Part shown: positions 22,387 through 60,791 of the stretch, in pieces | How positions within the stretch are numbered: the stretch's first letter is position 1 | Layout: the number at the start of each line of letters is the position of its first letter | From: Candidatus Aminicenantes bacterium | GTDB lineage: Bacteria; Acidobacteriota; Aminicenantia; Aminicenantales; Saccharicenantaceae | DNA: 64,000 nucleotides | Direction: 5' to 3' | Assembly (NCBI GenBank): GCA_017999365.1 | Contig: JAGNLW010000001.1 | Location: 130,239-194,238 of the forward strand | The notes under the pieces: generated by a model | What the model saw: the letters and a program-made list of their open reading frames with translations, nothing else | Told to the model about the DNA's origin: nothing | Database searches by the model: none | Made by a program: the position numbers and the translations under genes

Positions 22387-23253
22387 ATGACCCACCCCAT
22401 CAAGAACGTGCTCTGGGCCACGGACTTTTCCGCCGAGTCGAAGGAAGCCCTGGCCTACGCGAGCTTTTTCGCCAAGACCTTCAAGGCCAAGCTGACGGCC
22501 CTGCACGTCGTGCCCGATTTCGCGCCGGCCCTCTACGAGGCCTGGCCGGAGGCGCAGGCCGAGCTGGCCGGCAAGATCGAGGCCAGCAAGGTCAGCGCCA
22601 AGGCCCAGCTCGAGCACATGTGTGCGGCCCAGGGCGTCTGCGCCGACAAGATCGTGGTCACCGAGGGCTCGGCGGCCAAGGTCATCCTCAAGACCGCGCA
22701 GAAGGAAGGCGCCGGGCTCATCGTCGTCGGCCGCAAGGGCGTCTCGGGGCACGAGCAGAACCTCATCGGCAGCGTCACCCACCGCATCCTGCGCGGCGCC
22801 CGCGTGCCGGTCCTGGTGACCAAGGGCACGGACGGCAAGCTCGGCGACCTGACCAAGATCCTCGTGCCGACCGACTTCTCGAACGACGAGGACGTCGAGC
22901 GCGACCACGCCTGGAAGCTGGCCAAGGCCCTGGGCGCGAGCCTGACCTTCCTCTATGTCATGGAGCTCTTCGGCCACGACTTCCGGCTGACCGACGAGAT
23001 GTTCTCCTCGGTCCTGAAGAAGCTCCAGGCCCGCAAGAAACGCGAGCACAAGGCCGTCGAGATGCGCGAGGACGTCGTCAAGGCCGTGCACGGCTACGAG
23101 GGCATCATCGAGTACGCCGACAGCAAGGGCTTCGGGCTCGTGGTCATGTCGACGACGGTGCGCAAGCTGTCGCGGCTCTTCCTCGGCAGCACGACCGAGA
23201 AGGTCATCGCCCACAGCCGCGTGCCCGTCTTCGCCATCCCGCGCGAGAAGTGA
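22387..23253 (+). CDS. Universal stress protein (tandem UspA domains)
   Basis: Two UspA-like halves, each ending in the ATP-binding-type G-x2-G-x9-G(S/T) segment (...VVGRKGVSGHEQNLIGSVTHRIL...; ...VMSTTVRKLSRLFLGSTTEKVI...). Confidence 0.8.
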   Translation: MTHPIKNVLWATDFSAESKEALAYASFFAKTFKAKLTALHVVPDFAPALYEAWPEAQAELAGKIEASKVSAKAQLEHMCAAQGVCADKIVVTEGSAAKVILKTAQKEGAGLIVVGRKGVSGHEQNLIGSVTHRILRGARVPVLVTKGTDGKLGDLTKILVPTDFSNDEDVERDHAWKLAKALGASLTFLYVMELFGHDFRLTDEMFSSVLKKLQARKKREHKAVEMREDVVKAVHGYEGIIEYADSKGFGLVVMSTTVRKLSRLFLGSTTEKVIAHSRVPVFAIPREK

Positions 23254-23283
23254 AGTAGGGCCCTGAAGAAAGAATACCGGCCC

Positions 23284-23430
23284 ATGGCCCTGGGTTTCTG
23301 GGGCGTGGGCCTGCCGCTCATCCTGTTCGGGCTCCTGTTCTGCCGGACCGCCGCCCAGCGGGTCGCGGTCCTCGGGGCGGGGGCGCTCTTCCTCGCGGCC
23401 GGAGCGCTCATCGCCCGGGCCAGGGGATAG
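23284..23430 (+). CDS. Small (48-aa) two-helix hydrophobic protein immediately upstream of the SSS transporter (not in the ORF track)
   Basis: ATG 23284 ... TAG 23428-23430 gives MALGFWGVGLPLILFGLLFCRTAAQRVAVLGAGALFLAAGALIARARG. Small membrane proteins commonly precede solute:sodium symporters. The RBS is weak. Confidence 0.35.
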   Translation: MALGFWGVGLPLILFGLLFCRTAAQRVAVLGAGALFLAAGALIARARG

Positions 23431-23433
23431 CCG

Positions 23434-25218: not shown

Positions 25219-27083
25219 GGAAAATGGGGACGTTTCTATTTATTTCTGTCATCTTTCTCCTGTTCCCCGGCTGCGGCCGGACGCCGGATGGGGCGAAGGC
25301 CGGCGCGGGCCGGAAGGCGGGCCAGACCGCAGGCGAGCGGGCGGGCGCGTCGAGCCCCGCCCTGTCCCCCGGCGTCGCGGCGTTCGGTTACCCGGTCGGC
25401 GGCGAGCCCTGGTATTTCGTCAGGGGCGGGCTCGCGCTCGCCGAGCTCCCGGAGGGGGCCGGCGCGGACGCGGCCTGGAGCGTCGACAGGGTCGTCGTCG
25501 ACGGCGAGCGGACGCGGGACTTCCTCGTCTACCAGGACGGCCGCGAGATCGACAAGCACGCGGTCAAAGCCGCGCGCGGGCGCGTCGCGTTCGAGGTCAA
25601 GGCCCGGCGCGTCTGGGCGCCGGGGGCCGAGTCGGAGATGACCGTCGACCTCGTCGAGCCCGTCTCGGGAGACATCCGCGTCGTCACGGCCAAGGGCACG
25701 GCGCCGGCCGGGCGCGGCTATTGGGACCCGGCCTGGAAGAACTACCTGGCCCTCGTCGTCTCGGAGGACCACGGCTTCGACCGCGCGGCCTATCCCGTCC
25801 ACGCCACGCTCGGCATCCTGGCCGATTACATCCGTTCGGCCGACGAAGTCCGGGTGGTGCGGGCGGAACGCCGCGAGGGCGGGGACATCGTCTACACCGA
25901 GGTCCCGAGCCAGGTCACCGATCTCGTCACCTGGAACGACCCGGCGGTCCTGGGGATCGAGGAGAAGGACGCCGCGACCGGAGCCAAGGTCGTCCGCTAC
26001 CATCCGACGACCTCGTTCGATGTGGCCTTCCTGGCCGACGTCGCGGCCCGCTCCAAGGTGACCTATCTCGTGTTCTACAACAATCCGGGCGCGGCCGCGC
26101 CCGCCTATCCGGCCGGACTGAGCGTGGCCAAGGGGAAAGGATTGGCACGGACGGTCGAGAACCCGTTCTACCGCATCACCCTGCATGAGGCCAGCGGCCA
26201 CATCTACGAGATCTTCGAGAAGGCGACCGGGACGACGCTCGAGCACAAGCTCGAGACGAACGGGGCCGTCCACTGGAACCCCGACGTCTACGCGCCGCCC
26301 CATGCCTGGTACCACAGCTCGGATTGGACGGCGCCCGAGGCGGTCGAGACGGCCGCCGGGCCGGTCTTCTACGCCGTCAACATCAAGGGCCAGCTGCCCC
26401 AGCCGGAAGGCATCGACATCGGCATCCGCTATCGCTTCTACGCCGGATCGCCCGCTGTGACCGTCGAGTCCGTGCTGACCGTAGGCAAGGACGCCTTCGT
26501 CATGGCCCTGCGCAACGCCGAGGTCGTCTTCAACAAGGCCGTCTTCACCAAGGCCGCGTTCAAGCGGGACGGCGAGACGGAGGTCCTCGACTTCGCCGTC
26601 TCCAAGCGGCACCCGGACCACGCCGTCGTCCTGCGGCCCGACACGCCCTGGGTCAGCTTCTACGACGAGGCCAAGGGCGTCGGCTTCGCCTCGCTCTACC
26701 TCGACATGGCCACGCCGAACCTCAACGGCGGCCAGGCCTCGCTCGAGCAGCCCTTCCTCTACATCCAGCACGGGCCGTGGTACTACGTGTCACGCGGCTT
26801 CGTCTATTCCTTCGCCACCAACAACCAGACCCGGATGCTGCCGGTCAAGGCGGGCAGCGTATATTACGACCGGAGCGCCTGGATCGCCTTCCCTTACCCG
26901 AAGGCGGAGGGCATCGGCCCGTTCCTCGACGCCCGATACAACGCCCTGAAGTTCCCGCTGGCCGTGAGCGAGGACATCGAGACCTTCAGGGAGAGCCCCG
27001 AGGGCTGGGTCGTGCCCATCCTGACCGAGCCCTTCGAGGAGGGCGTCAAGGGCGCCACCGGCGGCGCCGACCGCCGCAAATAG
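25215..27083 (+). CDS. Hypothetical lipoprotein (623 aa), translationally coupled to the SSS transporter
   Basis: Start ATG 25215 overlaps the SSS stop (ATGA), with a GGGAGGGA RBS. Lipoprotein signal MRKMGTFLFISVIFLLFPGCG. The track fuses it into artefactual ORF 23454..27083. Confidence 0.65.
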   Translation: MRKMGTFLFISVIFLLFPGCGRTPDGAKAGAGRKAGQTAGERAGASSPALSPGVAAFGYPVGGEPWYFVRGGLALAELPEGAGADAAWSVDRVVVDGERTRDFLVYQDGREIDKHAVKAARGRVAFEVKARRVWAPGAESEMTVDLVEPVSGDIRVVTAKGTAPAGRGYWDPAWKNYLALVVSEDHGFDRAAYPVHATLGILADYIRSADEVRVVRAERREGGDIVYTEVPSQVTDLVTWNDPAVLGIEEKDAATGAKVVRYHPTTSFDVAFLADVAARSKVTYLVFYNNPGAAAPAYPAGLSVAKGKGLARTVENPFYRITLHEASGHIYEIFEKATGTTLEHKLETNGAVHWNPDVYAPPHAWYHSSDWTAPEAVETAAGPVFYAVNIKGQLPQPEGIDIGIRYRFYAGSPAVTVESVLTVGKDAFVMALRNAEVVFNKAVFTKAAFKRDGETEVLDFAVSKRHPDHAVVLRPDTPWVSFYDEAKGVGFASLYLDMATPNLNGGQASLEQPFLYIQHGPWYYVSRGFVYSFATNNQTRMLPVKAGSVYYDRSAWIAFPYPKAEGIGPFLDARYNALKFPLAVSEDIETFRESPEGWVVPILTEPFEEGVKGATGGADRRK

Positions 27084-27158: not shown

Positions 27159-27187
27159 TTGACAAAAGGCGGGGGAATCGCTCTAAT
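27159..27187 (+). promoter_or_regulatory. Sigma-70-like promoter (TTGACA-17-TCTAAT) in front of the DsbD-alpha-like/selA/selD/selB operon
   Basis: TTGACA at 27159-27164, a 17-nt spacer, TCTAAT at 27182-27187. The first start codon is 6-9 nt downstream, implying a leaderless or very short leader mRNA. Confidence 0.4.
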
Positions 27188-27192
27188 GGCCG

Positions 27193-27765
27193 GTGATGCG
27201 CAACACCGCCGTTATCACCATCATCGCCCTCGCCGCCGCCCTCGGTCTCACGGCCGGCCCGGCCCTCGCCGCCCAGGAGGAGGGGCACGTCGTCGAGGTC
27301 AAGAGCCTCGTCTCCCGCGAAGCCGTCCGCCCCGGCGAGACCTTCCAGGCCGCCGTCCTCGTCACGGTCCAGGCGGGCTACCACATCAACGACAACGCCC
27401 CCGTCGACGAGTTCATGATCCCGACCGTCCTGACGGTCCTGGAGGCCCCGGACTTCGAGGTCCTCGAGACCTACTATCCCGTCGGCCGCCGGGCCCGTTT
27501 CTCCTACTCCGAGGTCGAACTCGTCGTCTACGAAGGGGAGACGGCCCTCGGCCTCCTGCTCAAGGCCAAGGACGGCATCGCGCCCGGCCCCCGGACCGTC
27601 AAGGTCTCCCTCGGCTACCAGGCCTGCGACGCCATGTCGTGCCTGCCGCCCAAGGAGCTGGCCTTCGAGATCGCCGTCCCCGTCGCGGCCGACGGCGCCG
27701 CGCCCGCCGCCGACGTCAAGCCCGAGGTCTTCAAAAAGCTCCGCTTCAAGTCCCTGAAAAAATGA
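27193..27765 (+). CDS. DsbD N-terminal (alpha) domain-like periplasmic thiol-disulfide protein
   Basis: Signal peptide. YHINDNAP and LGYQACDAMSCLPPKE closely resemble the E. coli DsbD-alpha cysteine pair region (..YQGCADAGFCYPPE..). Start at GTG 27193 or ATG 27196. Confidence 0.65.
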   Translation: MMRNTAVITIIALAAALGLTAGPALAAQEEGHVVEVKSLVSREAVRPGETFQAAVLVTVQAGYHINDNAPVDEFMIPTVLTVLEAPDFEVLETYYPVGRRARFSYSEVELVVYEGETALGLLLKAKDGIAPGPRTVKVSLGYQACDAMSCLPPKELAFEIAVPVAADGAAPAADVKPEVFKKLRFKSLKK

Positions 27766-29180
27766 CGGACGAATCGAGACAAGCCCTCTTCCGCGCCATC
27801 CCGTCCCTCGACGCCCTGCTGTCCTCCGAGGCCGCCGCCCCGCTCCTGGCCGCCCACGGCCGCGAGGCCGTCGTCGCCGCCGGACGGGCCGTCCTCGACG
27901 ACCTGCGCGCCGGGATCGCCGCGAATGCCGCGCCCGACGACCTGTCGCTCCCCGCCCTGGCCGCCCGCGTCGCCGGCCGCCTGGCCTCCCGCCTGGCCCC
28001 CTCCCTCGCCCCCGCCATCAACGCCACCGGCGTCATCATGCACTCCGGCCTCGGCCGGGCCGTGCTCCCGCCCGCCGCGTGCGGAGCCCTCGGCGCCGTC
28101 GCCGCCGGCTACTCGACCCTGGCCCTCGACCTCGACTCCGGCAAGCGCGTCCCCCGCGACCGCCACGTCGAGGGCCTCCTCCGCGATCTCACCGGAGCCG
28201 AAGCAGTCACCGTCGCCAACAACAACGCCGCCGCGACCGTCCTCATCCTCGACACCATGGCCCGCGGCAAAGAGGTCGTCGTCTCGCGCGGCCAGCTCGT
28301 CGAGATCGGCGGCTCCTTCCGCATGCCCGACGTCATGGCCTCAAGCGGCGCCGTCCTGCGCGAGGTCGGCACGACCAACAAGACCCACCTCCGCGACTAC
28401 GAGGCCGCCCTGTCCCCCGCCACCGGGGCCATCCTCCGCGTCCACCACAGCAACTACCGCATCCTCGGCTTCGCCGAGGAGCCCCCCATCGAGGACCTCG
28501 TCGCCCTCGGCCGCTCCCGCGGCGTCCCGGTCATCGACGACCTCGGCAGCGGAGCCCTGGTCGACCTCGCGCGCTACGGCCTGGCCGGCGAGCCCCTGGT
28601 CCGGGCCAGCTTGGCCGCCGGCGCCGACGTCGCCTGCTTCAGCGGCGACAAGCTCATCGGCGGTCCCCAGTGCGGCATCATCGCCGGCCGCACCGAGTGG
28701 ATCCAGCGTATCCGTAAGAATCCTCTGGCCCGGGCCTTCCGCTGCGGCAAGCTGACCCTGGCCGCCCTCGAAGCGACCCTCAAGCTCTTCCTGGACCCCG
28801 ACCGGCTGGCCGAACGCCATCCCATCTACCGCATGTTCGCCCTCACGCCCGGCGAACTCGCCCGCCGGGCCGAAGCCATGGCCGCCTCCCTCCGCGAAGT
28901 CCTGCCGGCCGCCGTCGCGGTCGCCGTCGTCGACGCCGAGTCCCAAGTGGGCAGCGGCGCCGTCCCCGTCGAGACCATGCCCTCGAAGGCCCTGTCCATC
29001 CGCGCCGCCCGCCTCCCCGCCGAGGACCTGGCCCGCCGCCTGCGCCGCGGCGCGCCGCCCGTCTTCGCCCGCGTCCACCGCGACGCCGTTCTCTTCGACC
29101 TGCGCACGGTCCAGCCCGGCCAGGAGGCCGCCCTCCGGGCCGCGCTCGCCGCGATCCTCCAAGATGAAAAAAACAAATAG
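27762..29180 (+). CDS. selA: L-seryl-tRNA(Sec) selenium transferase (selenocysteine synthase)
   Basis: PLP-lysine motif FSGDKLIGGPQCG (SelA FSGDKLLGGPQAG). 472 aa. Start overlaps the upstream stop (ATGA). Confidence 0.9.
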   Translation: MTDESRQALFRAIPSLDALLSSEAAAPLLAAHGREAVVAAGRAVLDDLRAGIAANAAPDDLSLPALAARVAGRLASRLAPSLAPAINATGVIMHSGLGRAVLPPAACGALGAVAAGYSTLALDLDSGKRVPRDRHVEGLLRDLTGAEAVTVANNNAAATVLILDTMARGKEVVVSRGQLVEIGGSFRMPDVMASSGAVLREVGTTNKTHLRDYEAALSPATGAILRVHHSNYRILGFAEEPPIEDLVALGRSRGVPVIDDLGSGALVDLARYGLAGEPLVRASLAAGADVACFSGDKLIGGPQCGIIAGRTEWIQRIRKNPLARAFRCGKLTLAALEATLKLFLDPDRLAERHPIYRMFALTPGELARRAEAMAASLREVLPAAVAVAVVDAESQVGSGAVPVETMPSKALSIRAARLPAEDLARRLRRGAPPVFARVHRDAVLFDLRTVQPGQEAALRAALAAILQDEKNK

Positions 29181-30405
29181 GAACGGCCCCGTTTCTCGGG
29201 CCTTCTTCGAGAGGCGCAAGCGCGTCATGGGGCGGTCCATCGCCCTCGGCCATTGCATCTGCAACCCCAAGGACCCCTGCCCCTGCGACCTCTTCAAACA
29301 GAAGAACGTCTGTCTCTGCGCCGGCGAGCGCGAGGCCGACGCCCCCGACGACGTCGCCCTGACCACTCTCGTCGAGAACGCCGGCTGCGCCTCAAAGATC
29401 GGCCAGGAGGACCTCAAGCGGGCCCTCGCCGGCCTGCCGCGCACCTTCGACCGCCGCGTCCTCGTCTCCTCGGACACCTGCGACGACGCCGGCGTCTACG
29501 CCCTGACCCCGCGCACGGCCCTCGTCCAGTCGGTCGACGTCTTCACCCCCGTCGTCGACGACGCCTACGCCTTCGGCGAGATCGCCGCCGCCAACTCCCT
29601 CAGCGACATCTACGCCATGGGCGGCCGCCCCCTGACGGCCCTGTCCATCGTCGCCTTCCCCATCGAGCGCCTCAGCCCGCGCCTCATGAACCGCATGCTC
29701 CAGGGCGGCGTCGACAAGCTCCGCGAAGCGGGCGTGGCCCTCCTCGGCGGCCACAGCATCAAGGACCGCGAGATCAAGTTCGGTTTCGCCGTGACCGGCG
29801 TCGTCGACCCCCGCCGCATGACCGTGAACAACCGCGCCAAGCCCGGCGACGTTCTCGTCCTGACCAAGCCCCTCGGCACGGGCACGCTGAGCTTCGCCCG
29901 CCAGATCGGCCGGGCCCCGGCCGACGGCCTGGCCGCCGCCGAGCTCTCCATGCGCGCCCTCAACAAGGCCGCCGCCGCCCTCTTACCGGCCTTCCGCGTC
30001 ACCACGGCCACCGACATCACCGGCTTCGGCCTGGCCGGCCACCTCGGCGAGATCGCCGCCCAGAGCCGAGTCGACATCGAGGTCTTCGGCGCCTCCCTCC
30101 CCGTCTTCCCCGGCGTCCTCGAGCTCATCCGCGCCGGGGTCGTCTCGGGCGCCGTCGAGCGCAATCGCGAATACGCCTCGTCCTTCGTCCGGCGCGCCGA
30201 TCTGACCGTCCCCGAGGAGCTCGAGACGCTCCTCTACGACCCCCAGACCTCGGGCGGCCTGCTCGTCGCCGTCCGCCCCTCGCGGGCCGCGGCTTTCCTC
30301 TCCGCCCTCGGCCGCGCCGGCGTCCCGGCCGCCGCCATCGTCGGACGCGTCACCCGCAAGTCCGCCAAGCCCCGCATCGTCCTCCGCGCCGCCGCCCCGC
30401 GCTGA
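29164..30405 (+). CDS. selD: Selenide, water dikinase (selenophosphate synthetase), Cys-type, with Cys-rich N-terminal extension
   Basis: Core ...LTTLVENAGCASKIG... aligns to E. coli SelD ...LTQYSHGAGCGCKI... (Cys rather than Sec at the active-site position). The AIR-synthase-like fold blocks are present. A ~50-aa N-terminal extension with HCICNPKDPCPCDLFKQKNVCLCAGE precedes the core. Alternative start ATG 29227. Confidence 0.9.
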   Translation: MKKTNRNGPVSRAFFERRKRVMGRSIALGHCICNPKDPCPCDLFKQKNVCLCAGEREADAPDDVALTTLVENAGCASKIGQEDLKRALAGLPRTFDRRVLVSSDTCDDAGVYALTPRTALVQSVDVFTPVVDDAYAFGEIAAANSLSDIYAMGGRPLTALSIVAFPIERLSPRLMNRMLQGGVDKLREAGVALLGGHSIKDREIKFGFAVTGVVDPRRMTVNNRAKPGDVLVLTKPLGTGTLSFARQIGRAPADGLAAAELSMRALNKAAAALLPAFRVTTATDITGFGLAGHLGEIAAQSRVDIEVFGASLPVFPGVLELIRAGVVSGAVERNREYASSFVRRADLTVPEELETLLYDPQTSGGLLVAVRPSRAAAFLSALGRAGVPAAAIVGRVTRKSAKPRIVLRAAAPR

Positions 30406-30410
30406 CCGCC

Positions 30411-32342
30411 ATGGCCGAGCTCGACCACGTCATCGTCGGCACGGCCGGGCACATCGACCACGGCAAGAGCGCCCTCGTCCGGGCCCTGACCGGCACCGAC
30501 CCCGACACGCTGCCCGAGGAAAAGGCCCGCGGCATGACCATCGAGCTGGGCTTCGTCTTCCTCGACGACCCGGGCTACCCGAAGCAGATCGTCTTCATCG
30601 ACGTCCCCGGCCACGAGCGCTTCGTCAAGACCATGGCCGCCGGAGCCAGCCACGTCGACGCCGCCCTCCTGGTCGTCGCCGCCGACGAGGGCCTGGCCGT
30701 CCAGACCCGCGAGCATTTCGACATCCTGACCCTCCTCGGCATCGAGCACGGGCTCATCGCCCTGACCAAGAGCGACCTCGTCGACGGGGACCGCGTTGCC
30801 GAGCTCACGGCGTCCGTCCGCGCCTTCGTCCGCGGCTCGTTCCTGGAGAGCGCGCCCATCCTCGCCGTCTCCGCCCTCACCGGCGCCGGCCTCCCGGAGC
30901 TCAAAGCCGCGCTCCAGGCCATCGGCCGCCGCGTCCGCCCCCGGCCCGACAGCGGCGTCTTCCGCATGCCCGTCGACCGCGTCTTCACCATGCACGGCTT
31001 CGGCACGGTCGTCGCCGGCACCGTCCTCTCGGGCACGGTCCGGGCCGGCGACCGCGTCGAGATCTTTCCCGAAGGCCTGAAAAGCCGCGTTCGCGGCGTC
31101 CAAGTCCACGGCTCCAAGGCCGACGTCTCGGGGGTCGGGCGCCGCACGGCCCTCAACCTCCAGGACCTGGCCAAGGAGGATCTCCGCCGCGGCCAGGTCG
31201 CCGCCGCCGAAGGCTCGCTCGTCCCGACGGCGCGCCTCGACGCCCGCCTCGACGTCCTGGCCGACGCCCCCCGCGAGGTCAAGCACCGCGACCGGGTCCG
31301 GCTCCACATCGGGACCGACGAGGTCATGGCCCGGCTCGCCGTCATCGGCGGGCCGTCCGTCGCCCCCGGCGCCTCCTCCCCCGTCCAGCTCGTCCTCGAA
31401 CGGCCGGCCGTGGCCCTGCCCGGCGACCGCTTCGTCATCCGTTCCTTCTCGCCCGTCCTGACCGTCGGCGGAGGCCTCGTCCTCGACGCCGCGCCCGAGA
31501 AACACAAGCGCTTCAGCGGCCGGGTCCTCGAGGGGCTGGGCAAGCTCGGCGGGCCGGCCCGCGAGGCCGTCGACCAGATGTTCGCCCAGGCCGGCGGCAT
31601 CCCCCGGACCGCCTCCGACATCGCCCTCAAGCTCGGCCGGGCCGAAGCCGACGTCGCCGAGGCCGTCGCCGCGCTCGCCGCCGAGGGCGCGCTCGTCGCC
31701 GTCGGCGAGGGCCAGCCCGAGCGCTACCTCCACCGGTCCGTCCGCGACGAGCTGGCCGCCGGGCTCGTCGACGGCCTCAAGGCCTATTTCGCCGCGAATC
31801 CCTACAAGCCGGCCATGCCCTACTCCGATCTCCGCGCCGCTTTTCTCGGCAAAAGCGACGCCGCCGGCCTCAAGCACGTCCTCGACTCCCTCCTCGCCTC
31901 GGGCGCGCTCTTCCGCAAGGACGCCGGCGTCGGCCTCACCGGCCGCGAGGTCGCGGCCGACCCCGTCGAGGCCGAGCGCCGCGCCCGCGTCGCCGGGGCC
32001 TATGCCTCGGCCCGGTTCTCCGCCCCGCTCGAGGACGACGTCCGCCTCTCCCTCAAGCTCAATCCCTCGGCGTTCGAGCCCGTCCTCAACGCCCTGCTCC
32101 GCGACGGCACGCTCGTCCGGCTGGCGCCCAAGGTCGTCTATCACCGCGACACGGTCGAGGCCGCCCGCTTGGCCGTGGCCGGCCTCATCGAGCGGCGCGG
32201 CTCGGTCTCCATCGCCGAGCTCCGCGACCGCCTGGCGCTCTCCCGCAAGTACGCCCAGGCCATCCTGGAATATTTCGACAAGACCGGCTTCACCAAGCGC
32301 GTCGGCGACCGTCACGTCGCGGGCGCGCGCCCCGCCCGCTGA
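30411..32342 (+). CDS. selB: Selenocysteine-specific translation elongation factor
   Basis: GTPase motifs GHIDHGKS, DVPGHERF and TKSD. EF-Tu-like domains II/III are followed by a long C-terminal winged-helix extension (mRNA/SECIS binding). 643 aa. Confidence 0.9.
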   Translation: MAELDHVIVGTAGHIDHGKSALVRALTGTDPDTLPEEKARGMTIELGFVFLDDPGYPKQIVFIDVPGHERFVKTMAAGASHVDAALLVVAADEGLAVQTREHFDILTLLGIEHGLIALTKSDLVDGDRVAELTASVRAFVRGSFLESAPILAVSALTGAGLPELKAALQAIGRRVRPRPDSGVFRMPVDRVFTMHGFGTVVAGTVLSGTVRAGDRVEIFPEGLKSRVRGVQVHGSKADVSGVGRRTALNLQDLAKEDLRRGQVAAAEGSLVPTARLDARLDVLADAPREVKHRDRVRLHIGTDEVMARLAVIGGPSVAPGASSPVQLVLERPAVALPGDRFVIRSFSPVLTVGGGLVLDAAPEKHKRFSGRVLEGLGKLGGPAREAVDQMFAQAGGIPRTASDIALKLGRAEADVAEAVAALAAEGALVAVGEGQPERYLHRSVRDELAAGLVDGLKAYFAANPYKPAMPYSDLRAAFLGKSDAAGLKHVLDSLLASGALFRKDAGVGLTGREVAADPVEAERRARVAGAYASARFSAPLEDDVRLSLKLNPSAFEPVLNALLRDGTLVRLAPKVVYHRDTVEAARLAVAGLIERRGSVSIAELRDRLALSRKYAQAILEYFDKTGFTKRVGDRHVAGARPAR

Positions 32343-32411
32343 TCCCGCCCGGCGGGCCGTCCCGACAACGCGCGGGAACCGGCCTGACCGGACCGGCGTT
32401 ATACGAGTATA

Positions 32412-33557
32412 ATGGGCCCAGCCATGACCGCCCGCCGCGCCCTGTTCCTGTTCCATCTCCGGGTCGGCGCCCGTCTGGCCCTGCGCGTCCTGGCCCCCGT
32501 GCTGGCGGCGGCGCTTTTCCTTTATTACGTTCTCCGGCCGGAGTTCTCGCTCGAGCTGGCCCGCATCCTTTTCATCGAGGGCGGCTTCGTCGAATCCGGC
32601 CTGGCCGGCACGCTGCTCCTGCTCGGTCTGGCCCGCGTGGTCGCACCCCGGATCGCGGCCGGAAGCGCCGGCTGGACGCGCTCGCTCCCGGTCGCCCCGG
32701 CCGCCCAGCGGTTCTCCGCGCTCCTCTCGCTGCTCGTCGCCGAGATCCCCGTCCTCACGGTGCTCGGGGCGTTCGTCTGGGTCATCACGGACCCGGGACC
32801 GATGCCCGGGGCCGCGCTCGCCGCGCGCCTCGCGGAACATGCCCTCCGCTTCCTCCCCCATGTCCTGGGCCTGATCGCGGGCGCCGCCGCGGCCGGCCGC
32901 GTCGCCAGGCGGGACGCGCCCTCCGGGGCCTTCTTCCAAACGCTCTCCCTCCGGGCCGTCGGATGGCGGTTCGCCCTCGCCGGCCTCGCGGCCTGCGCCG
33001 TCCTCGGCGGCGCCCGGCTCCTGTTGGCCAATAACGACCTCGCCCCGCGCGCGGCCTTCGTTCTCTCGCTCTTCGGCATCGTCCTCGGCCTGACCGCGTT
33101 CGTCGGACCGGCCGCCGACATCCTGGCCGCCCGCCGGCCCGCTTGGCCCTGGCTCAGGTCCCTGCCGAGGTCGGCCGCGGCCCGCGTGCGGGACGATGCG
33201 CTCCTCCTGGCCCTGCTCGCCCTCCCGCTCGCGGCCCTCGGCATGATCCTGCTCCGGAGCCCGGCCCGGCGGGCCGCCTACCTCCCGGGACCATTGGCCT
33301 GGCTCGCGGTACGGGGCGCGGAAGCCCTTCGCGAGGCCGGCGACCGGCCGTTCGGGGCTCTCGGGCACATCGCCGTCGAAGGGGCCTTCCTCTCCCTCGT
33401 CCTGGCCCTTTTGCCTTGGACCTCGTTCCTGCTCGCGGCGGCGTCTCCCGTCGCCTTTATCCTCGCCCGCGACGCGGAGCGCCGTCTCAAGCCGACCCGC
33501 TGGGCCGAGCGGCGCCACGCGGCCGCCGGCGACCCCCTCTCCTGGAGCGCTTCATGA
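32412..33557 (+). CDS. Polytopic membrane protein (ABC-2-type permease-like), coupled to the downstream ABC ATPase
   Basis: About 380 aa and highly hydrophobic with multiple TM segments. Its stop overlaps the ATPase start (ATGA). The start may be ATG 32412 or 32424. Confidence 0.55.
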   Translation: MGPAMTARRALFLFHLRVGARLALRVLAPVLAAALFLYYVLRPEFSLELARILFIEGGFVESGLAGTLLLLGLARVVAPRIAAGSAGWTRSLPVAPAAQRFSALLSLLVAEIPVLTVLGAFVWVITDPGPMPGAALAARLAEHALRFLPHVLGLIAGAAAAGRVARRDAPSGAFFQTLSLRAVGWRFALAGLAACAVLGGARLLLANNDLAPRAAFVLSLFGIVLGLTAFVGPAADILAARRPAWPWLRSLPRSAAARVRDDALLLALLALPLAALGMILLRSPARRAAYLPGPLAWLAVRGAEALREAGDRPFGALGHIAVEGAFLSLVLALLPWTSFLLAAASPVAFILARDAERRLKPTRWAERRHAAAGDPLSWSAS

Positions 33558-36150: not shown

Positions 36151-36311
36151 CGTCCCCTTCGTTGACCCGGCCGCCGGATTCTCTTATAATCCGTCCGGGT
36201 GCACGGGGCAATGAGGCCCCGCGCAGGTTATCGCCTCACGGGTGGTCGGGCCGCCATCCTTATCGTCCCGGAACGCCTCCCCGGCGTTCGGGGCGCCGAT
36301 AGGGAGTCGCC

Positions 36312-41170: not shown

Positions 41171-41265
41171 GGGAGGGTGAAGGATCCGGTGATCCTTCCG
41201 GACTTCAAATCCGGTATGGGGCTATAAACGTCCCGGATGGGTTCGACTCCCATACCTTCCCGCCA
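41171..41265 (+). tRNA. selC: tRNA-Sec (anticodon UCA)
   Basis: 95 nt. 8-bp acceptor stem GGGAGGGU/ACCUUCCC (one G-U), 6-bp D-stem AGGAUC/GAUCCU with 4-nt loop, anticodon stem CCGGA/UCCGG with loop CUUCAAA (UCA), long variable arm GGGGC-UAUAAAC-GUCCC, 5-bp T-stem AUGGG/CCCAU with loop UUCGACU, discriminator G and an encoded CCA. This is the bacterial 8/5 tRNA-Sec architecture. Confidence 0.85.
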
Positions 41266-56800: not shown

Positions 56801-58474
56801 CTGACGGCCGCCGAGGCCCGCCGGGTCCGGGCCGTCCTGGCCCTGCCCTCGTTCCTGCGCGACTCGGTCCGGCTGGCCTCCGGCGTCGAGGACTTCGAGG
56901 CCGGCCAGATCGCCGCCGACGGCCTGTGGGTCTCGCGCATCTACAGCGCGCCGCGCCGTTCGACCTATCGGGTCAGCGTCAACACCGCCGCCGGGCGCCA
57001 CTACGACCTCAAGCTCGTCCTGCCCGAGGGGCCGCGCGACGGGGCCGAGCGCGAGACCCGGCTGTGGTCGGCCGTGCTCTCGGACCAGCCCGGCGGGCCG
57101 CGCGTCCTGCCGCCGCTCGGGGCGACCGACGAGCGGACGGGCGCCGTGACCTGGCGCCACCTCGGCGACCTGACCGTCTGGGAGAAGATCCGCGAGTTCG
57201 CCGGACGGCGGGCCGTGGACGGGCCGCTGCCCGCGCCTTCGGTCTGGCGCAAGCTCTACGTCGAAGCCATGTCGGCCCTCTTCGGGGCCTGGCAGACGAG
57301 CGGCCGGCGCATCCTGCCGGGCCGTATCTCGCCGGTCAACGTCGTCGTGCCCGACCTCGAGTTCCGGGACGACACCTTCCTGGCCTCGATCGACGGCTGG
57401 CGTCCCTCTTCGGGCCCGCTGTCGCTCGTCCGCCCCATGGTCGACGGCTTCTACCGCCGGCCGGCGGCCAACTACCCCTGGCTCAAGGACCACCTCGACC
57501 TCGACTGGATCTTCGACGCCGCCTACGACGCCCTGGGCCGGGAGCGGGCCGCGGCCTTCTTCGACGCCCTCCAGCCCGAACTCGACCGCCGGCCGCTGCC
57601 CTCGCTGGCGGGGCAGGACCTGGCCGTCCGCCTGCGCCGGTACCGGGCCGAGTTCGCCCGGACCTACGTCTTCCCCATGCCGCCGTTGAGCGCGGTCGAG
57701 GCCTACCGCGAATGGCGGCAGGGCAACCCGCTGGCCCCGTCGCGGGACCGGGAGCGCAAGGTCCTCGACCTCTACCGGCGCTACTCCCTGGAGCGTTTCC
57801 CGGAGATCGTCCGCTACTACCTCTACCGTCACACCTATTTCGCCGGGCGGAGCGAGCGCATCGAAGCCCTCTTCGACCGCCTCTTGGCGCGGCTGGGCAC
57901 ATCCCTGGACGAGCCGGCCGTGCAGCGGACGGAGCTTTCGGACCTGCAGTCGGCCCTGCGCGACGAGCTCGACCGCCTCGTCTTCAGCCGTATGGTCTTC
58001 CCGCGCCTCGACCCGGACAGCCGTTTGGACGTCAGGACCAAGGGCGAAGAAGGCGAACGGCGGGTCGTCGTGCGGTCCTTCCTGCTCGACCGGGCCGGGC
58101 GGACCTACACCTTCAACGAGACCCTCGACCCGGCCGAGATCGGCCAGGCCTACCGGCTGTTCTTCAAGGAGAACTACCCCAAGATCGTCTCCCAACAGGA
58201 CCGACACTTCGTCCTCAAGGACGGGCAGGAGCGCATCGTCGGGGGGCTGTGCTACCGGATGTTGTCGAACCGGGTGGCCTGGATCGACGTCATCGCCGTG
58301 ACCTCGAACCTCAAGTCATCGGGACTGGGCGGGGCGGCCCTGGACGACTTCTGCGCCCGCATGGCCAGCCAGGGCGTGCCCCTGGTCATGACCCACCTCT
58401 ATCTGCCGGGGTTCTTCCTGAGGCACGGCTTCCGCCTGGACAAGCGCTGGGGCGCGCTGGTCAAGACGCTTTGA
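53816..58474 (+). CDS. Giant multidomain protein: N-terminal AMP-binding (ANL) adenylating domain, ~900-aa central region, C-terminal GNAT acetyltransferase domain
   Basis: GGGGGAGGGA RBS. AMP-binding motif MFTSGSTGRPKGV and later ANL blocks (GFGMTEGTG..., ...WFATGD...). The C-terminus has the GNAT beta-alpha-beta pattern ...VGGLCYRM...WIDVIAVTSNLKSSGLGGAALDDFC. 1552 aa. Confidence 0.75.
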   Translation: MKAEPSRYARDLQRLLEAWAGPKGKRRPGPGTTGNSALELLERVERDLSGGRGPSREAGREFLRITSDPRFLRELGRTDLQTRWAEACFALIQATGYGIGDLFEDRVRETPGRVFLQDMAVSPPRLWTYEAAARHVRETAGALYALADAEGIEPRLAIYAENHAEGAVADLACLCTDILDTPVNPHFSLENVVGVCDALAINMVLANDRERIGLLREARRRAARPFRILVTDPGLNDGGEDIVFLTEYAKQLGARDVEARLARRRRFRLDEVATVMFTSGSTGRPKGVSFSIYNLISKRFARAAALPLVGPEEVFLSFLPLYHTFGRYLELLGTIYWRGTYVFAGNPSAETLFRLMPKVRPTGFISVPVRWAQLHERCLERLDAAPAGADAGAIVREVVGTRLAWGLSAAGYLDPRVFRFFQAHGVELMSGFGMTEGTGGMTMTPPGGYVDNSHGLPLPGLTARLGENGELQVSGHYVARYLEDKGPGDTVPVPTGDPERDHWFATGDVFERQANGYYQIVDRIKDIYKNNRGQTVAPRKVEDKFVGVPGIKRTFLVGDGRPYNVLFIVPDAADRVLAGGLARESDRENLREYFRRIVTAANEGLAPYERVVNFEVLGRDFDPEAGEVTAKGSYNRKRIEAAFAGAIDDLYRRRAVDLRGQGLTVRLPLWFFRDLGILEDEIVRDRDGLRDLNRGLRLPLRRGSDGRTWLVGDLEYEIEGGLLDLGLFARQPVLWVGNPSLAAFAPCKEGWDLPLEPATGWVSLPRRRARTYTEAETPPPAKLGDARLGRLHVLLAKLLFSPEDVPDAVLAEVERVFYESPLRTEELVRARLRAMAWHPSPRLRCWAYRILLIHDPDIDYGQVMPAFVSSGLPFLDRESIDEIASARLGRGRLDAFRVRLRAYRETMPWPVTAPYRRQFERIFRLLVDLAGREPSFFSSVRAELASWVLHRADPELARTAERHLDRMVARFGRNAAAGTRAASERRPPRPICDDSLTAAEARRVRAVLALPSFLRDSVRLASGVEDFEAGQIAADGLWVSRIYSAPRRSTYRVSVNTAAGRHYDLKLVLPEGPRDGAERETRLWSAVLSDQPGGPRVLPPLGATDERTGAVTWRHLGDLTVWEKIREFAGRRAVDGPLPAPSVWRKLYVEAMSALFGAWQTSGRRILPGRISPVNVVVPDLEFRDDTFLASIDGWRPSSGPLSLVRPMVDGFYRRPAANYPWLKDHLDLDWIFDAAYDALGRERAAAFFDALQPELDRRPLPSLAGQDLAVRLRRYRAEFARTYVFPMPPLSAVEAYREWRQGNPLAPSRDRERKVLDLYRRYSLERFPEIVRYYLYRHTYFAGRSERIEALFDRLLARLGTSLDEPAVQRTELSDLQSALRDELDRLVFSRMVFPRLDPDSRLDVRTKGEEGERRVVVRSFLLDRAGRTYTFNETLDPAEIGQAYRLFFKENYPKIVSQQDRHFVLKDGQERIVGGLCYRMLSNRVAWIDVIAVTSNLKSSGLGGAALDDFCARMASQGVPLVMTHLYLPGFFLRHGFRLDKRWGALVKTL

Positions 58475-59405
58475 CGCGCAAATCGACGGAGACTTCCTTC
58501 TTGCCCAGGAACTCGTAGCCGACCGCGCCGAACTTGCACGACGAGACGCACTTCAGGCAGCGGACGCAATCGGGAGAGTTGGCCGATTCGTAGATGCTGA
58601 TCCCGACGGGGCACTCCTTGGTGCACTTGTCGCACAGGGTGCACTTGTCGGGGTCGACGGCCATGCGGAAAAGGCTGGCCTTGTTGAACAGGCCCCAGAA
58701 GGCGCCGAGCGGGCAGACCGTGCGGCAGAAGGGGCGGCGGCTGAGGACGAACCAGCCCAGGAACAGGACGAGCAGGGCCAGCTTCCAGTAATACATGAAG
58801 CCGATGAGGGGGCGCAGGTCGGCCTTGATGAGCATGAGCGGGATGCCGGCCTCGAGCGTCCCGGCCGGGCAGACCCATTTGCAGAACCAGGTCTGGCCGT
58901 AGCCGAACTGATCGACGACGAGCAGCGGCAGGGCCACGACCGTGGTGGCCAGGACGACGTAGCGGAAGTAGGTCAGGAAGCGCGGCACCTTGAGCTTGGG
59001 CGAAGGGATCTTGTGGACGAGCTCCTGGAAGAAGCCGAACGGGCAGACCCAGCCGCAGGGCATGCGGCCCACGGCGCTGCCGACGGCGGCCAGGAATCCG
59101 GCGACATAGAGGCCGAACTTCTTCTGGGCGATCGACAGGTTGAAACGCAGGCCGGCGAAGAAGGTCTGCATGGCGCCGACGGGACAGGCCCCCATGGCCG
59201 AGGGGCAGGAGTAGCAGTTGAGGCCGGGGACGCAGACACCCTTGACCGCGCCCTGGAAGATGCGGCCCTGGAACCACGACGGGATCCAGGCGTTGAGGCC
59301 GAGGGCGAAGAAGGCCTGGTACCAGGGGCGGCGGTCCCGGGGCTTGCGGGCCGCGGGCTTACGGGCCGGGACGGTCTTCCGGACGGCGCCCATGGTCGTC
59401 CTCAC
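58461..59405 (-). CDS. Membrane polyferredoxin (NapH/MauN/CcoG-like 4Fe-4S binding protein)
   Basis: Three transmembrane-type CxxCP motifs (PCGWVCPFG, FCKWVCPAG, FCRTVCPLG) plus two ferredoxin CxxCxxC motifs (CTLCDKCTKECP, CVRCLKCVSSC). Confidence 0.75.
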   Translation of the reverse strand: MRTTMGAVRKTVPARKPAARKPRDRRPWYQAFFALGLNAWIPSWFQGRIFQGAVKGVCVPGLNCYSCPSAMGACPVGAMQTFFAGLRFNLSIAQKKFGLYVAGFLAAVGSAVGRMPCGWVCPFGFFQELVHKIPSPKLKVPRFLTYFRYVVLATTVVALPLLVVDQFGYGQTWFCKWVCPAGTLEAGIPLMLIKADLRPLIGFMYYWKLALLVLFLGWFVLSRRPFCRTVCPLGAFWGLFNKASLFRMAVDPDKCTLCDKCTKECPVGISIYESANSPDCVRCLKCVSSCKFGAVGYEFLGKKEVSVDLRVKAS

Positions 59406-59536
59406 CCGATCCCGATGCAGTCGAGGCAGACCGTGACGGCCTTCTCGAGGACGGTCCGGTACTCGCCGAGCAGGAGACCGGCGGTCATGACGGCCAGGGA
59501 CAGGACCAGGAGGACCCAGGGCAGCCGGCGCTTCAT
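59402..59536 (-). CDS. Small (44-aa) membrane protein ending in a CLDC motif
   Basis: MKRRLPWVLLVLSLAVMTAGLLLGEYRTVLEKAVTVCLDCIGIG. Located between the thioredoxin and polyferredoxin genes, with overlapping or abutting stops and starts. Coordinates are taken from the ORF-track frame. Confidence 0.45.
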   Translation of the reverse strand: MKRRLPWVLLVLSLAVMTAGLLLGEYRTVLEKAVTVCLDCIGIG

Positions 59537-60171
59537 TTCACTCCCCCGCCGACGAGAGCGGCGACGGCCTTGTCGAGCGCGGCCTCCAGCTCGTCGGTGG
59601 CCCCGACGTGGGCATGGGTGACGGTGCCCGTCGCATTGAAGACATAGACGACCGGGATCTCCTGGACGCCGTAGGCCTTCTTCATATCCTTGGCCGTCGC
59701 GGCCACGCCCGCGGCGGCGGGAGCCGTGGGCGCGTCGGCCAGCATGGGATAGGTGATCTTGAGCTTGTTGTAGAAGGGCTTGACGACCTTGCCTCCGGCC
59801 TCGTCGAGGGCGATGCCCAGGACGACCAGGCCGCCCTCGGTCCGGTCCGCGGCCGGCCCATAGGTCTCGCTGAGCTTCTGCATGTGGGGCATGGCCTTGC
59901 GGCAGGGCACGCACCAGGTGGCCCAGAAATCGACCAGCACGGCCGCCGGGTGGGTCTTGACGGTCTTGGTCTCGCCGGCCACGGTCTCGGTCACGGTGAG
60001 GGTCAGCCGGCCGTCTTCCACGGCGACGGCATAGTCCTTGCCGTCGACGTTCTTGAGCGAGAACGGCACGAGCTTGGCCCCCGGCTTGAGCACGGCGAAG
60101 GCCGGCAGGACGAGGAGCAGGGCCAGGAGCAGGATCGGGACCGTCAGGGCGAAACCGCGGCGCGTCTTCAT
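59533..60171 (-). CDS. Periplasmic thioredoxin-fold protein (TlpA/ResA-like), WCxxC
   Basis: Start ATG 60171 (signal MKTRRGFALTVPILLLALLLVLPAFA). VLVDFWATWCVPCRKAMP is the thioredoxin active site. Confidence 0.8.
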   Translation of the reverse strand: MKTRRGFALTVPILLLALLLVLPAFAVLKPGAKLVPFSLKNVDGKDYAVAVEDGRLTLTVTETVAGETKTVKTHPAAVLVDFWATWCVPCRKAMPHMQKLSETYGPAADRTEGGLVVLGIALDEAGGKVVKPFYNKLKITYPMLADAPTAPAAAGVAATAKDMKKAYGVQEIPVVYVFNATGTVTHAHVGATDELEAALDKAVAALVGGGVK

Positions 60172-60224
60172 GCTCCCCAGTTTAGCGGAATAAAGGGGAC
60201 GATTCCAGGGGAACATCCCCATTT

Positions 60225-60791
60225 CTAGAATCTGACGACGAAGCCGAGGCCGGCCGAGAGGCCGCCGATCTTGGCCTCGAGGGGGTCCTCGGCGTCGCCG
60301 GCGGTCAGGGTGCAGGCCCGGTAGCCGGCGTGGACGTCCAGGCCGAACGACCGGCCCATCAAGAGGACGAGCCCCGCCTGGCCCAGCGCGCCGAGGCCGC
60401 TTTCGCTGGCCGCGCCGAGCGCGTTCCTTTCCTTGAACAGGAAGTAGGCGGCCGCGGCGCCGAGATAGGGACGGACGCCCTTGCGGCCGAATTGGAGGCG
60501 CAGGCCGGCGAAGAGCGGCGTGATCGTGACCTTGGTCGTCTCCTCGGATTCCGTCGTCAGGCCCCGCTTGGAGAACAGCTCGACGCCGGCCCAGGCCCGC
60601 AGCGGCCCGGCCACCGGCACCGCGAGGTCGAGGCCGAAAGCCGGCCCGCCGCCGTAGACGTCGCGGAAGACGGCGTCGGACGGGGTGAAGTAACCGCCCT
60701 TGATCGTGAGCGCGGTCTCGGCCGCTCGGGCCCCGGCCGCTGTCAGGGCCAGGGCCAAAAGCGCGGCCGCCGCCTTCGTCGCGTGTCTCAT
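60225..60791 (-). CDS. Outer-membrane beta-barrel protein (OmpW/porin-family-like)
   Basis: Signal peptide. Alternating hydrophobic strands. Ends ...GLGFVVRF with a terminal Phe. Confidence 0.75.
   Translation of the reverse strand: MRHATKAAAALLALALTAAGARAAETALTIKGGYFTPSDAVFRDVYGGGPAFGLDLAVPVAGPLRAWAGVELFSKRGLTTESEETTKVTITPLFAGLRLQFGRKGVRPYLGAAAAYFLFKERNALGAASESGLGALGQAGLVLLMGRSFGLDVHAGYRACTLTAGDAEDPLEAKIGGLSAGLGFVVRF

Follow-up and report, generated by a model that had tools for sequence, protein, structure and literature searches.

The sel operon and its promoter-proximal gene

We examined a gene cluster for selenocysteine (Sec) synthesis and decoding in Aminicenantes DNA; the window is the whole stretch that was analysed, 64 kb in length. 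The gene ahead of selA is called DsbD_N here after its Pfam family, and the features of the cluster are as follows.

27159..27187, + strand: promoter-like element read from the sequence, TTGACA (27159-27164), a 17-nt spacer and TCTAAT (27182-27187)
27193..27765, + strand: DsbD_N gene, encoding a free-standing DsbD-alpha-like secreted protein of 190 aa (Pfam PF11412)
27762..29180, + strand: selA, L-seryl-tRNA(Sec) selenium transferase (TIGR00474, 547 bits, cutoff 268; Pfam SelA and Se-cys_synth_N)
29164..30405, + strand: selD, selenide water dikinase of the Cys type, GCASK (TIGR00476, 350 bits, cutoff 125)
30411..32342, + strand: selB, Sec-specific elongation factor (TIGR00475, 331 bits, cutoff 242; Pfam SelB domains)
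41171..41265, + strand: tRNA-Sec, anticodon TCA (ARAGORN; Rfam RF01852, 76.5 bits)

The four protein-coding genes lie where an initial annotation of this DNA had placed them, and selA, selD and selB all exceed their NCBIfam equivalog cutoffs. The same annotation had put the tRNA-Sec gene (selC) about 9 kb away, and ARAGORN and Rfam locate it 8.8 kb downstream of the operon. The bacterial Sec-decoding set is complete, with selA, selB, selD and selC each matching an equivalog or RNA model (NCBIfam, Rfam). At its N-terminus, SelD is extended by about 60 residues that are conserved and rich in Cys (HCICNPKDPCPCDLFKQKNVCLC). A second ATG at 29227 is an alternative selD start, but the residues upstream of it are conserved, supporting the start at ATG 29164. 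The window had been thought to hold no selenoprotein gene, and two crude scans for in-frame TGA codons agree: their single candidate, at 2101, falls in an outer-membrane-protein-like ORF and is not followed by a SECIS-like fold (z 0.59).

The DsbD_N gene has two alternative start codons, GTG 27193 and ATG 27196, which lie 5 and 8 nt from the end of the -10 hexamer, so the transcript would be leaderless or have a very short leader. Of 35 core-clade loci, 29 have the same promoter element directly 5' of DsbD_N, while the intergenic sequence around it shows no conservation. The element is missing from the output of a consensus promoter scan because that scan demanded an A at position 2 of the -10 hexamer. 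Position 27159, given as the start in the initial annotation, is not where a gene begins but where the -35 hexamer does.

Overlaps had been described at every junction of the cluster, and this holds for two of the three. DsbD_N and selA share an ATGA overlap, and selA and selD overlap by 17 nt, given the selD start at ATG 29164, whereas selD ends with TGA at 30403-30405 and 5 nt separate it from the selB start, ATG 30411. In 35 loci the conserved SelA N-terminal motif IPSLD begins 25-66 nt after the DsbD_N stop. No terminator-like site was found inside the operon at any junction, and there is no space for a terminator plus a promoter between DsbD_N and selA. The conserved promoter and the short distance from DsbD_N to SelA together indicate that DsbD_N, selA, selD and selB most likely form one operon led by DsbD_N, and thus bear out the earlier view that the 190-aa gene heads the sel operon.

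The DsbD-alpha-like protein

The initial annotation had described a secreted protein with a Cys pair like that of the DsbD alpha domain. A DsbD_N HMM search of 27193..27765 is in line with this, giving 35.5 bits (PF11412, cutoff 25, E 1.2e-8) over profile positions 9-114 of 119; relatives reach 37.6 bits in locus L043 and 34.2 bits in locus L071. The protein is predicted to be exported to the periplasm by a Sec-type signal peptide (residues 1-26, MMRNTAVITIIALAAALGLTAGPALA, followed by AQ), and an n-region, a hydrophobic core and a cleavage site between ALA and AQ can be read in residues 1-27 and are kept in the alignment. It contains only two Cys residues, C145 (27625-27627) and C150 (27640-27642), both within YQACDAMSCLPP in the motif YQAC145DAMSC150LPP. 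The pair is invariant across 58/58 homologous DsbD_N loci, and His64 is invariant throughout the family alignment.

Searching the PDB with a broad family profile (A3) gave matches to nDsbD structures only, including all of the top eight. In 3pfu and 1jpe, C145 and C150 align to E. coli C103 and C109 (YQGCADAGFCYPP) with a one-residue gap, and an AF2 model of the 190-aa protein is all-beta. Alpha domain 1 of the full-length DsbD P0241 is 41% identical to the protein. Judged by its Pfam match, the aligned Cys pair and this identity, the 190-aa protein is a genuine DsbD-alpha-type domain at the sequence level. At E<=1e-3 its homologues comprise 4880 cluster representatives, free-standing as well as fused, and about three in four of the top 150 are free-standing. 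The combination of DsbD_N, DsbD_TM and thioredoxin domains is present in the distant homologues L046 and L050, and the full architecture also in P0241. Three-domain DsbD has its alpha domain fused to an eight-helix beta domain (DsbD_TM) and a gamma thioredoxin domain, whereas the 190-aa protein has the DsbD_N domain alone and no DsbD_TM or beta domain is encoded in the window.

Distribution of DsbD_N and its neighbours

Examination of relatives showed that the adjacency of DsbD_N and selA recurs, being present in 33 of 43 informative DsbD_N-anchored loci, all in Aminicenantes. Outside the Aminicenantes clade, DsbD_N lies beside selA in 0/47 informative selA loci, and in sister lineages selA is the first gene of the sel operon, preceded by a promoter-like region of its own and not by DsbD_N. 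The adjacency is maintained between distant relatives, with SelA identity falling to 55% and DsbD_N identity to 42%, and is shared by three upstream contexts: a GlcN/SSF block, a thioredoxin-Fer4_5 module (L043) and a divergent gene (L071). The initial annotation had known of no described role for DsbD-alpha in selenium metabolism. Likewise, we found no description of the pairing of DsbD_N with sel genes in the searchable literature, nor any relevant paper joining selenophosphate synthetase with DsbD; DsbD is nowhere mentioned by Lin et al. 2015 (PMC5322559).

DsbD_N is also kept without sel genes. In a locus-level test, it is intact in 10 informative loci that have no adjacent sel genes. In L025 the order is up620-promoter-DsbD_N-dn381, with selA-selD-selB cleanly absent and DsbD_N and its promoter intact, while in L013 the sel operon is decaying, with DsbD_N and selA kept, selD lost and selB truncated. 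The sel genes are also absent at L027 and L030 and in a clade comprising L032, L038 and L040; in L035 and L039, DsbD_N is seen without sel genes on contigs that end soon after it. The YQAC-x4-CLPP motif is preserved in the DsbD_N copies of all sel-less or decayed loci (L025, L013, L027, L030 and the L032-L040 clade). An accessory gene such as YedE or YedF would be expected in selenium-utilising genomes only and beside sel genes across distant phyla; at the locus level, DsbD_N shows neither pattern.

A second set of genes in the window, assigned by Pfam and NCBIfam matches, encodes a candidate partner module for DsbD_N.

58461..60791, - strand: putative partner module, made up of the four genes below
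60225-60791, - strand: small outer-membrane beta-barrel (OMP)
59533-60222, - strand: secreted TlpA/ResA-like thioredoxin, WCVPC
59402-59536, - strand: CD1871A-family CXXC membrane peptide, 44 aa
58461-59405, - strand: NapH-like Fer4_5 polyferredoxin

Orthologues of the module lie 0.1-4 kb from DsbD_N homologues in L032, L038, L040, L041, L043, L044 and L045, and in L042 the OMP gene alone is visible near DsbD_N before the contig ends, so that thioredoxin, CXXC-peptide, Fer4_5 and OMP genes adjoin DsbD_N in 7-8 loci. In L043 the module is directly upstream of DsbD_N and co-directional with it, forming a single cluster of redox module, DsbD_N and selA-selD-selB. DsbD_N is often lacking where the thioredoxin/Fer4_5 module occurs (L143, L145, L146), and in the window the two are 31 kb apart, so it is genomic neighbourhood that suggests the partnership. 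The module's recurrence beside DsbD_N in lineages lacking sel genes speaks for ordinary thiol redox chemistry in the envelope. The TlpA-like protein has Cys rather than Sec, both in the window and in L043.

A proposed dithiol carrier in a selenocysteine operon

We favour the view, to which we assign a probability slightly above one half, that DsbD_N encodes a generic envelope dithiol carrier that split from DsbD and came to be co-transcribed with sel genes in one lineage. The protein would be a free-standing, Sec-exported Ig-like beta-sandwich of the DsbD-alpha type with one putatively redox-active pair, C145/C150. It most likely originated by splitting of a three-domain DsbD, and most likely acts as a periplasmic dithiol/disulfide shuttle. 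In DsbD itself, electrons pass from thioredoxin through the beta and gamma domains to alpha, and from there to DsbC, DsbG or CcmG. The shuttle would receive its electrons from a thioredoxin-fold partner and donate them to substrates in the envelope. Of the possible donors, the secreted TlpA-like thioredoxin is the strongest candidate; the interval 58461-60222 encodes it together with the CXXC peptide and the NapH-like polyferredoxin. In one clade of Aminicenantes, a conserved sigma-70-type promoter is followed by DsbD_N and then by selA-selD-selB, so that DsbD_N opens the Sec-machinery operon as its first cistron and is translationally coupled to selA. The co-transcription of DsbD_N with the sel genes is real. 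The arrangement looks lineage-specific and co-regulation is possible, but we see no evidence of selenium handling by DsbD_N, which probably lacks a selenium function. Counting against a generic carrier, the persistence of the adjacency across deep divergence and three contexts exceeds what simple inertia predicts.

The initial annotation had instead proposed a selenium- or selenide-handling role. Such a protein could trap selenite on its Cys pair as a selenotrisulfide (Cys-S-Se-S-Cys) or relay reductant for the reduction of selenium species in the envelope, providing selenide to SelD, and the idea can be extended by taking the thioredoxin/CXXC-peptide/polyferredoxin module as the electron source. 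It gains from the position of DsbD_N as a first cistron coupled to selA behind a conserved promoter, from the adjacency kept down to 42% DsbD_N identity and in three upstream contexts, and from the co-directional L043 cluster. NapH-like Fer4_5 genes also adjoin sel genes in L086, L087/L088, L103 and L121, but their identity is only 34-38% and no CXXC peptide accompanies them, indicating that they belong to another subfamily. We nevertheless consider selenium supply unlikely, since DsbD_N stays intact where sel genes are absent or decaying, is missing from the sel operons of sister lineages and from all 47 informative selA loci outside the clade, and has redox-module genes as recurrent neighbours in sel-less lineages. 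Moreover, no YedE, YedF or DUF3343 was noticed among the annotated neighbours, and no biochemical precedent is known for selenium binding by DsbD-alpha. A dedicated selenium role is thus possible, but unproven and unsupported. We regard as quite unlikely a broader scheme in which DsbD_N is the periplasmic end of an unrecognised Fe-S-driven envelope reducing pathway wired to selenocysteine synthesis in Aminicenantes. There, the NapH-like polyferredoxin would replace DsbD beta, the CD1871A-type CXXC peptide and the TlpA-like thioredoxin would relay electrons, and the output would be selenium reduction or capture outside the cell for uptake, or exported selenoproteins kept reduced; L043, uniting thioredoxin, CXXC peptide, Fer4_5, DsbD_N, selA, selD and selB, would be the ancestral complete form.

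DsbD_N might also be a dedicated reductant of exported selenoproteins, such as a Sec-containing TlpA, Prx or DsbA-like oxidoreductase, its co-expression with the Sec machinery bringing substrate and reductant up together. Thioredoxin-fold thiol:disulfide oxidoreductases account for many of the selenoproteins predicted in bacteria (reviewed in PMC13188914) and are the usual clients of DsbD-alpha (PMC3322552 and established knowledge), and co-transcription with sel genes fits this role. However, the window has no selenoprotein gene, the TlpA-like protein carries Cys, and DsbD_N is retained at loci without sel genes, which leaves selenoprotein maintenance very unlikely. Least probable in our view is metal handling or another non-redox function, in which the protein would act like the periplasmic Ig-like domains of ScsB or CcoG in copper tolerance or reduction, or as a structural Ig-like protein, its cysteines serving as metal ligands. 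In its favour, the Fer4_5 family, to which the candidate membrane partner belongs, includes CcoG, and His64 is invariant. Against it, the sequence is homologous specifically to DsbD-alpha, alpha domains of bona fide DsbD fusions among them, and ScsB-alpha is two-lobed, about 250 aa long and stated to be non-homologous to DsbD-alpha (PMC3322552).

Selenium acquisition and reduction upstream of SelD are still poorly defined in bacteria, and a conserved thiol protein of the periplasm, if truly tied to a sel operon, would be a concrete candidate for that step. The evidence as it stands describes something more modest: a lineage-specific sel operon variant in one little-studied uncultured phylum, whose promoter-proximal gene appears to be a split-off DsbD alpha domain. 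Free-standing DsbD alpha domains deserve notice as a class, and the thioredoxin/CXXC-peptide/polyferredoxin module could replace DsbD-beta/CcdA in moving reductant across the membrane.

YedE, YedF, DUF3343 and LysR_Se were likewise proposed from selA/selB/selD neighbourhoods (Lin et al. 2015, PMC5322559). They recur beside sel genes in several phyla, and YedE and YedF are nearly confined to SelD-containing organisms (PMC5322559), whereas DsbD_N is linked to sel genes in Aminicenantes only and is also found at sel-less loci. Free-standing ScsB-alpha proteins, thought to act with separate beta and gamma components (Cho et al. 2012, PMC3322552), set a precedent for a separately encoded secreted alpha domain, and their electrons are proposed to come from a separate membrane component via a separate thioredoxin-like protein (PMC3322552). 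The 190-aa protein does not have the larger two-lobed N-terminal domain (COG4233) that marks ScsB alpha, and the partners differ: CcdA or ScsB-beta-gamma for ScsB-alpha (PMC3322552), while here the sole recurrent membrane neighbour is a NapH-like iron-sulfur protein. Canonical Sec operons (selAB, selD, selC) share the orthologous equivalogs selA, selD and selB and a nearby tRNA-Sec; here, a promoter-bearing DsbD_N cistron precedes selA, SelD has its conserved Cys-rich extension and selC lies apart from the operon. The closest likeness is to nDsbD of E. coli and Neisseria DsbD (PDB 1L6P, 1JPE, 3PFU, 2K0R), with which the 190-aa protein shares PF11412, a predicted periplasmic all-beta Ig-like domain, a single Cys pair in YQ(G/A)C...C(Y/L)PP and an aromatic-containing segment, RFSYSEV, that aligns with the cap loop EFYGKSE. 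It differs from nDsbD in being free-standing, in having four rather than five residues between the cysteines (five in E. coli), in its conserved basic C-terminal tail and in being encoded by the first gene of a sel operon.

Identity of the protein encoded ahead of selA

The initial annotation described a secreted, DsbD-alpha-like protein of 190 aa with a cysteine pair, encoded ahead of the selenocysteine (Sec) genes, and our searches bear this out. The ORF scores 35.5 bits against the Pfam model of the DsbD alpha domain (DsbD_N, PF11412; cutoff 25), and the protein has a Sec-type signal peptide and just two cysteines, both in YQACDAMSCLPP. A hypothetical protein from a Candidatus Aminicenantes MAG matches it at 100% identity, and its gene is on a contig of 2.27 Mb. 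A profile made from close homologues found no match in the PDB by sequence; with distant homologues added, the eight best PDB matches are all structures of the DsbD alpha domain (nDsbD), with E about 1e-3 for 3pfu, 1jpe and 1l6p. The alignment of this broadened profile places the cysteine pair on E. coli C103/C109 and RFSYSEV on the cap loop EFYGKSE. The invariant DEF(M/L)IPT was also considered as the cap loop (DEFYG in DsbD) and rejected, since the HMM alignment puts the loop at RFSYSEV. Foldseek of the full-length model against the PDB returned generic Ig-like matches only.

An exhaustive HMM search recovered 4880 cluster representatives at E<=1e-3. Among the best 150 of these, about three quarters are free-standing proteins of 150-300 aa, and the remainder are proteins of 550-870 aa. 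The top match, P0241, is a complete DsbD: it has two alpha domains, the membrane motifs LNLTPCVYP and AAPCIGP and a WCVAC thioredoxin domain, and the first of the alpha domains shares 41% identity with the window protein. Pfam assigns a DsbD_N, DsbD_TM and thioredoxin architecture to the proteins of two further homologous loci (L046 and L050). In the fusions, each alpha domain is followed by a segment (YPEIFDNLDLSL in P0241) similar to the conserved C-terminal tail HPEIFGKLRFKSL of the window protein, which fits gene fission, and we infer that the free-standing DsbD_N arose in this way. The protein is best read as a cell-envelope dithiol carrier of the DsbD-alpha type, encoded as a stand-alone domain.

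Probable operon structure and promoter-like element

The window has a G+C content of ~70%, and the genes around DsbD_N are arranged as follows.

Gene order around DsbD_N and the tRNA-Sec gene
23434-25218, +, SSF sodium:solute symporter
25215-27083, +, up620, a 622-aa lipoprotein of no family
109-nt spacer between up620 and DsbD_N
27193 or 27196 to 27765, +, DsbD_N gene
27762-29180, +, selA
29164 or 29227 to 30405, +, selD
30411-32342, +, selB, with ATG at 30411
81-nt spacer between selB and dn381, with its own promoter-like site
downstream of selB, +, dn381 (membrane protein), then an ABC ATPase, then an NYN-domain gene
41171-41265, tRNA-Sec

All three sel genes exceed their NCBIfam equivalog cutoffs, and the set of selA, selD, selB and tRNA-Sec is complete, as first described. 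The accompanying claim of overlaps at every junction was slightly overstated: the DsbD_N stop and the selA start share an ATGA and selA overlaps selD by 17 nt, given a selD start at 29164, but selD and selB are separated by a gap of 5 nt. We prefer the start at 29164 because relatives share the residues that precede the second ATG (…RRKRVM…).

A promoter-like element, TTGACA-17 nt-TCTAAT, lies at 27159-27187 upstream of DsbD_N. Of 35 core-clade loci, 29 have the same element immediately 5' of DsbD_N, within intergenic sequence that is not conserved. Where it is present, 6-17 nt separate the end of the -10 hexamer from the start codon, and the predicted mRNA would thus be leaderless or have a very short leader. 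Co-transcription of DsbD_N with the sel genes had been proposed, and we found no room for a terminator and a second promoter ahead of selA, as only 25-66 nt lie between the stop codon of DsbD_N and the conserved IPSLD motif of SelA (residue 13) across 35 loci. The conserved element and this short distance make a single DsbD_N-selA-selD-selB operon beginning at DsbD_N most likely. The best-supported reading is that, in one Aminicenantes clade, DsbD_N carries the promoter of the operon for the Sec machinery, to which it is translationally coupled.

A promoter-like CTGACC-18 nt-TATAAT at 32384-32413 (+) ends ~10 nt before the dn381 ATG at 32424, a leaderless-type arrangement as at the DsbD_N promoter; leaderless transcripts may be frequent in this lineage. 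A candidate sodium riboswitch, an nhaA-I RNA at 36197-36259 (+) (Rfam RF03057, 53.2 bits vs 37), precedes the gene for a sodium-dependent transporter of the SNF family (36324-37991).

In agreement with the initial annotation, two crude in-frame TGA scans of the window gave no credible selenoprotein gene. Apart from a TGA at 23251, rejected as the true Usp stop, and one at 50415, rejected as antisense, the sole candidate Sec codon was TGA 2101-2103, which was rejected for its outer-membrane-protein-like context and the lack of a SECIS-like fold downstream (z 0.59). It is the single in-frame TGA of a beta-barrel OMP-like ORF (1750-2460, +) that ends in ...LSLGIKLAF and has coding-type GC3 on both sides; we regard this ORF as a probable pseudogene or assembly error rather than a selenoprotein gene.

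Distribution of the DsbD_N-selA adjacency

Using a DsbD_N-anchored scan with one genome per species, we obtained 58 loci, 45 of them Aminicenantes-type. The adjacency in relatives to which the initial annotation had looked is present in 33 of these 45, with selA directly downstream of DsbD_N and selD and selB following where the contig permits, but 10 informative loci lack this arrangement (the other two end too early for a call). In a selA-anchored scan of 80 metagenome loci, DsbD_N lies 5' of selA in 4/4 informative loci whose SelA is at least 67% identical to that of the window. It is also upstream of selA in L071 (SelA 60% identical), and it is missing there in L068, L069, L072, L073, L074, L076 and L077 (56-65%) and in all 47 informative loci from outside the Aminicenantes clade. 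In the sister operons without DsbD_N, selA is preceded by an AT-rich promoter-like region of its own. In the SelA tree, the core clade is entirely DsbD_N-positive, the positive L071 falls within a mostly negative sister group, and the positive L043 stands beside the negative L074. Three upstream contexts are seen for the adjacency: behind a PIG-L/NagB/Usp/SSF/up620 block, as in the window; behind genes for a thioredoxin, a CXXC peptide and Fer4_5 (L043); and with a divergent gene next to polA (L071). Together, these patterns fit an old, lineage-restricted linkage that has been lost repeatedly.

DsbD_N is also kept without a full set of sel genes. L025, a close relative in which DsbD_N is 70% and dn381 80% identical to the window copies, has the order up620-promoter-DsbD_N-dn381 (7852-8796), with selA-selD-selB cleanly absent. 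L013 (10001-12523 on a 2.4-Mb scaffold) retains DsbD_N and selA, has lost selD, and has a selB reduced to its first 211 codons. These two variants suggest ongoing decay of the Sec trait in some Aminicenantes. L027 and L030 have no sel genes at the DsbD_N locus. In a sub-clade (L032, L035, L038-L040), DsbD_N follows the symporter gene after 1-58 nt without its own promoter, and no sel genes lie downstream, the contigs of L035 and L039 ending soon after the gene. Every one of these loci retains an intact ORF with its YQAC-x4-CLPP motif.

A conserved block lies 5' of DsbD_N in the window (20678-27083, +) and in L001-L040, comprising genes for a PIG-L deacetylase, a glucosamine-6-P deaminase-like protein, Usp, the SSF symporter and up620, the last two variably present. 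The sel genes are no more constant as neighbours of DsbD_N than this sugar-metabolism block. The spacing between DsbD_N and a preceding Usp or SSF gene is -4 to 6 nt in some loci, indicating that DsbD_N can also close the sugar operon as its last gene.

Redox neighbourhood and possible functions

Aminicenantes loci that are sel-less or more distant have a four-gene module at 0.1-4 kb from DsbD_N; in the window this module occupies 58461-60791 (-).

Genes of the four-gene module
small outer-membrane beta-barrel
secreted TlpA/ResA-like thioredoxin, FWATWCVPCR
44-aa CD1871A-family CXXC peptide ending CLDCIGIG (NF040920, 53.5 bits); in the window at 59402-59536, unannotated, with a 4-nt overlap with each neighbour
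NapH-like polyferredoxin (Fer4_5) with multiple CX3CP motifs

L043 has the thioredoxin, peptide and Fer4_5 genes directly upstream of, and co-directional with, DsbD_N-selA-selD-selB. This core is widespread without DsbD_N or sel genes (e.g. L143, L145, L146), so it is neighbourhood that suggests the module as a functional partner of DsbD_N. The core may form a transmembrane reductant route independent of CcdA or DsbD-beta.

NapH-like Fer4_5 genes also directly adjoin selA or selB in 4-5 of the 80 metagenome loci, all non-Aminicenantes (L086, 3154-4083; L087/L088, about 3437-4472, -; L103, 3-479; L121, about 9900-10692), which suggests an adjacency beyond chance for a gene at one to a few copies per genome. 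We rejected them as evidence for a selenium-linked module, because they are 34-38% identical to the window copy and have no CXXC peptide, and thus belong to a different subfamily. Genes for a 2-hydroxyglutaryl-CoA dehydratase D-component and a BcrAD/BadFG activase lie just downstream of selB in L043 (15441-17490), and in L121 selD is preceded by an activase gene (2613-4301); Lin et al. 2015 (PMC5322559) list both families among the STRING neighbours of Slackia sel genes.

The N-terminus of SelD has a conserved Cys-rich extension of ~60 aa with seven cysteines (window 29164-29360, +; consensus (K/R)RKR(I/V)MxRSxxLGHC(I/V)C(N/D)PxxxCPCDxFKxxxVCLCAGER), also present in L001-L037, L043, L063-L077, L087, L119, L121 and L122. 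It is restricted to Cys-type SelD (GCASK); in the same data set, SelDs without it have a Sec (TGA) or Cys active site. No Pfam or NCBIfam model matches the extension, even at E<=10. Its CPC-x8-CxC motif is reminiscent of the catalytic subunit of ferredoxin:thioredoxin reductase, which we treat as a lead only; a metal, iron-sulfur or selenium-delivery role is possible for the extension as a domain.

A selenium-specific function of DsbD_N, in selenium capture or reduction or in the reduction of exported selenoproteins, is possible, and the persistence of the DsbD_N-sel linkage is the main argument for it. Three points speak against an obligatory selenium role: the retention of DsbD_N without sel genes, its lack in the sel operons of sister and foreign lineages, and its redox-module neighbourhood. 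The initial observation is confirmed and its interpretation partly supported, the dithiol carrier at the head of the operon being the better-supported reading.

An account of selenium-linked neighbour genes makes no mention of DsbD or ferredoxins (Lin et al. 2015, PMC5322559), and literature searches returned nothing relevant pairing 'selenophosphate synthetase' with 'DsbD' and nothing related joining 'Aminicenantes' and 'selenocysteine'. As far as searchable, the DsbD_N-sel pairing is therefore undescribed. Free-standing ScsB-alpha, thought to work with separate beta and gamma components, is a precedent for a split system (PMC3322552). We take the arrangement to be a variant sel operon with a split-off DsbD alpha domain at its head.
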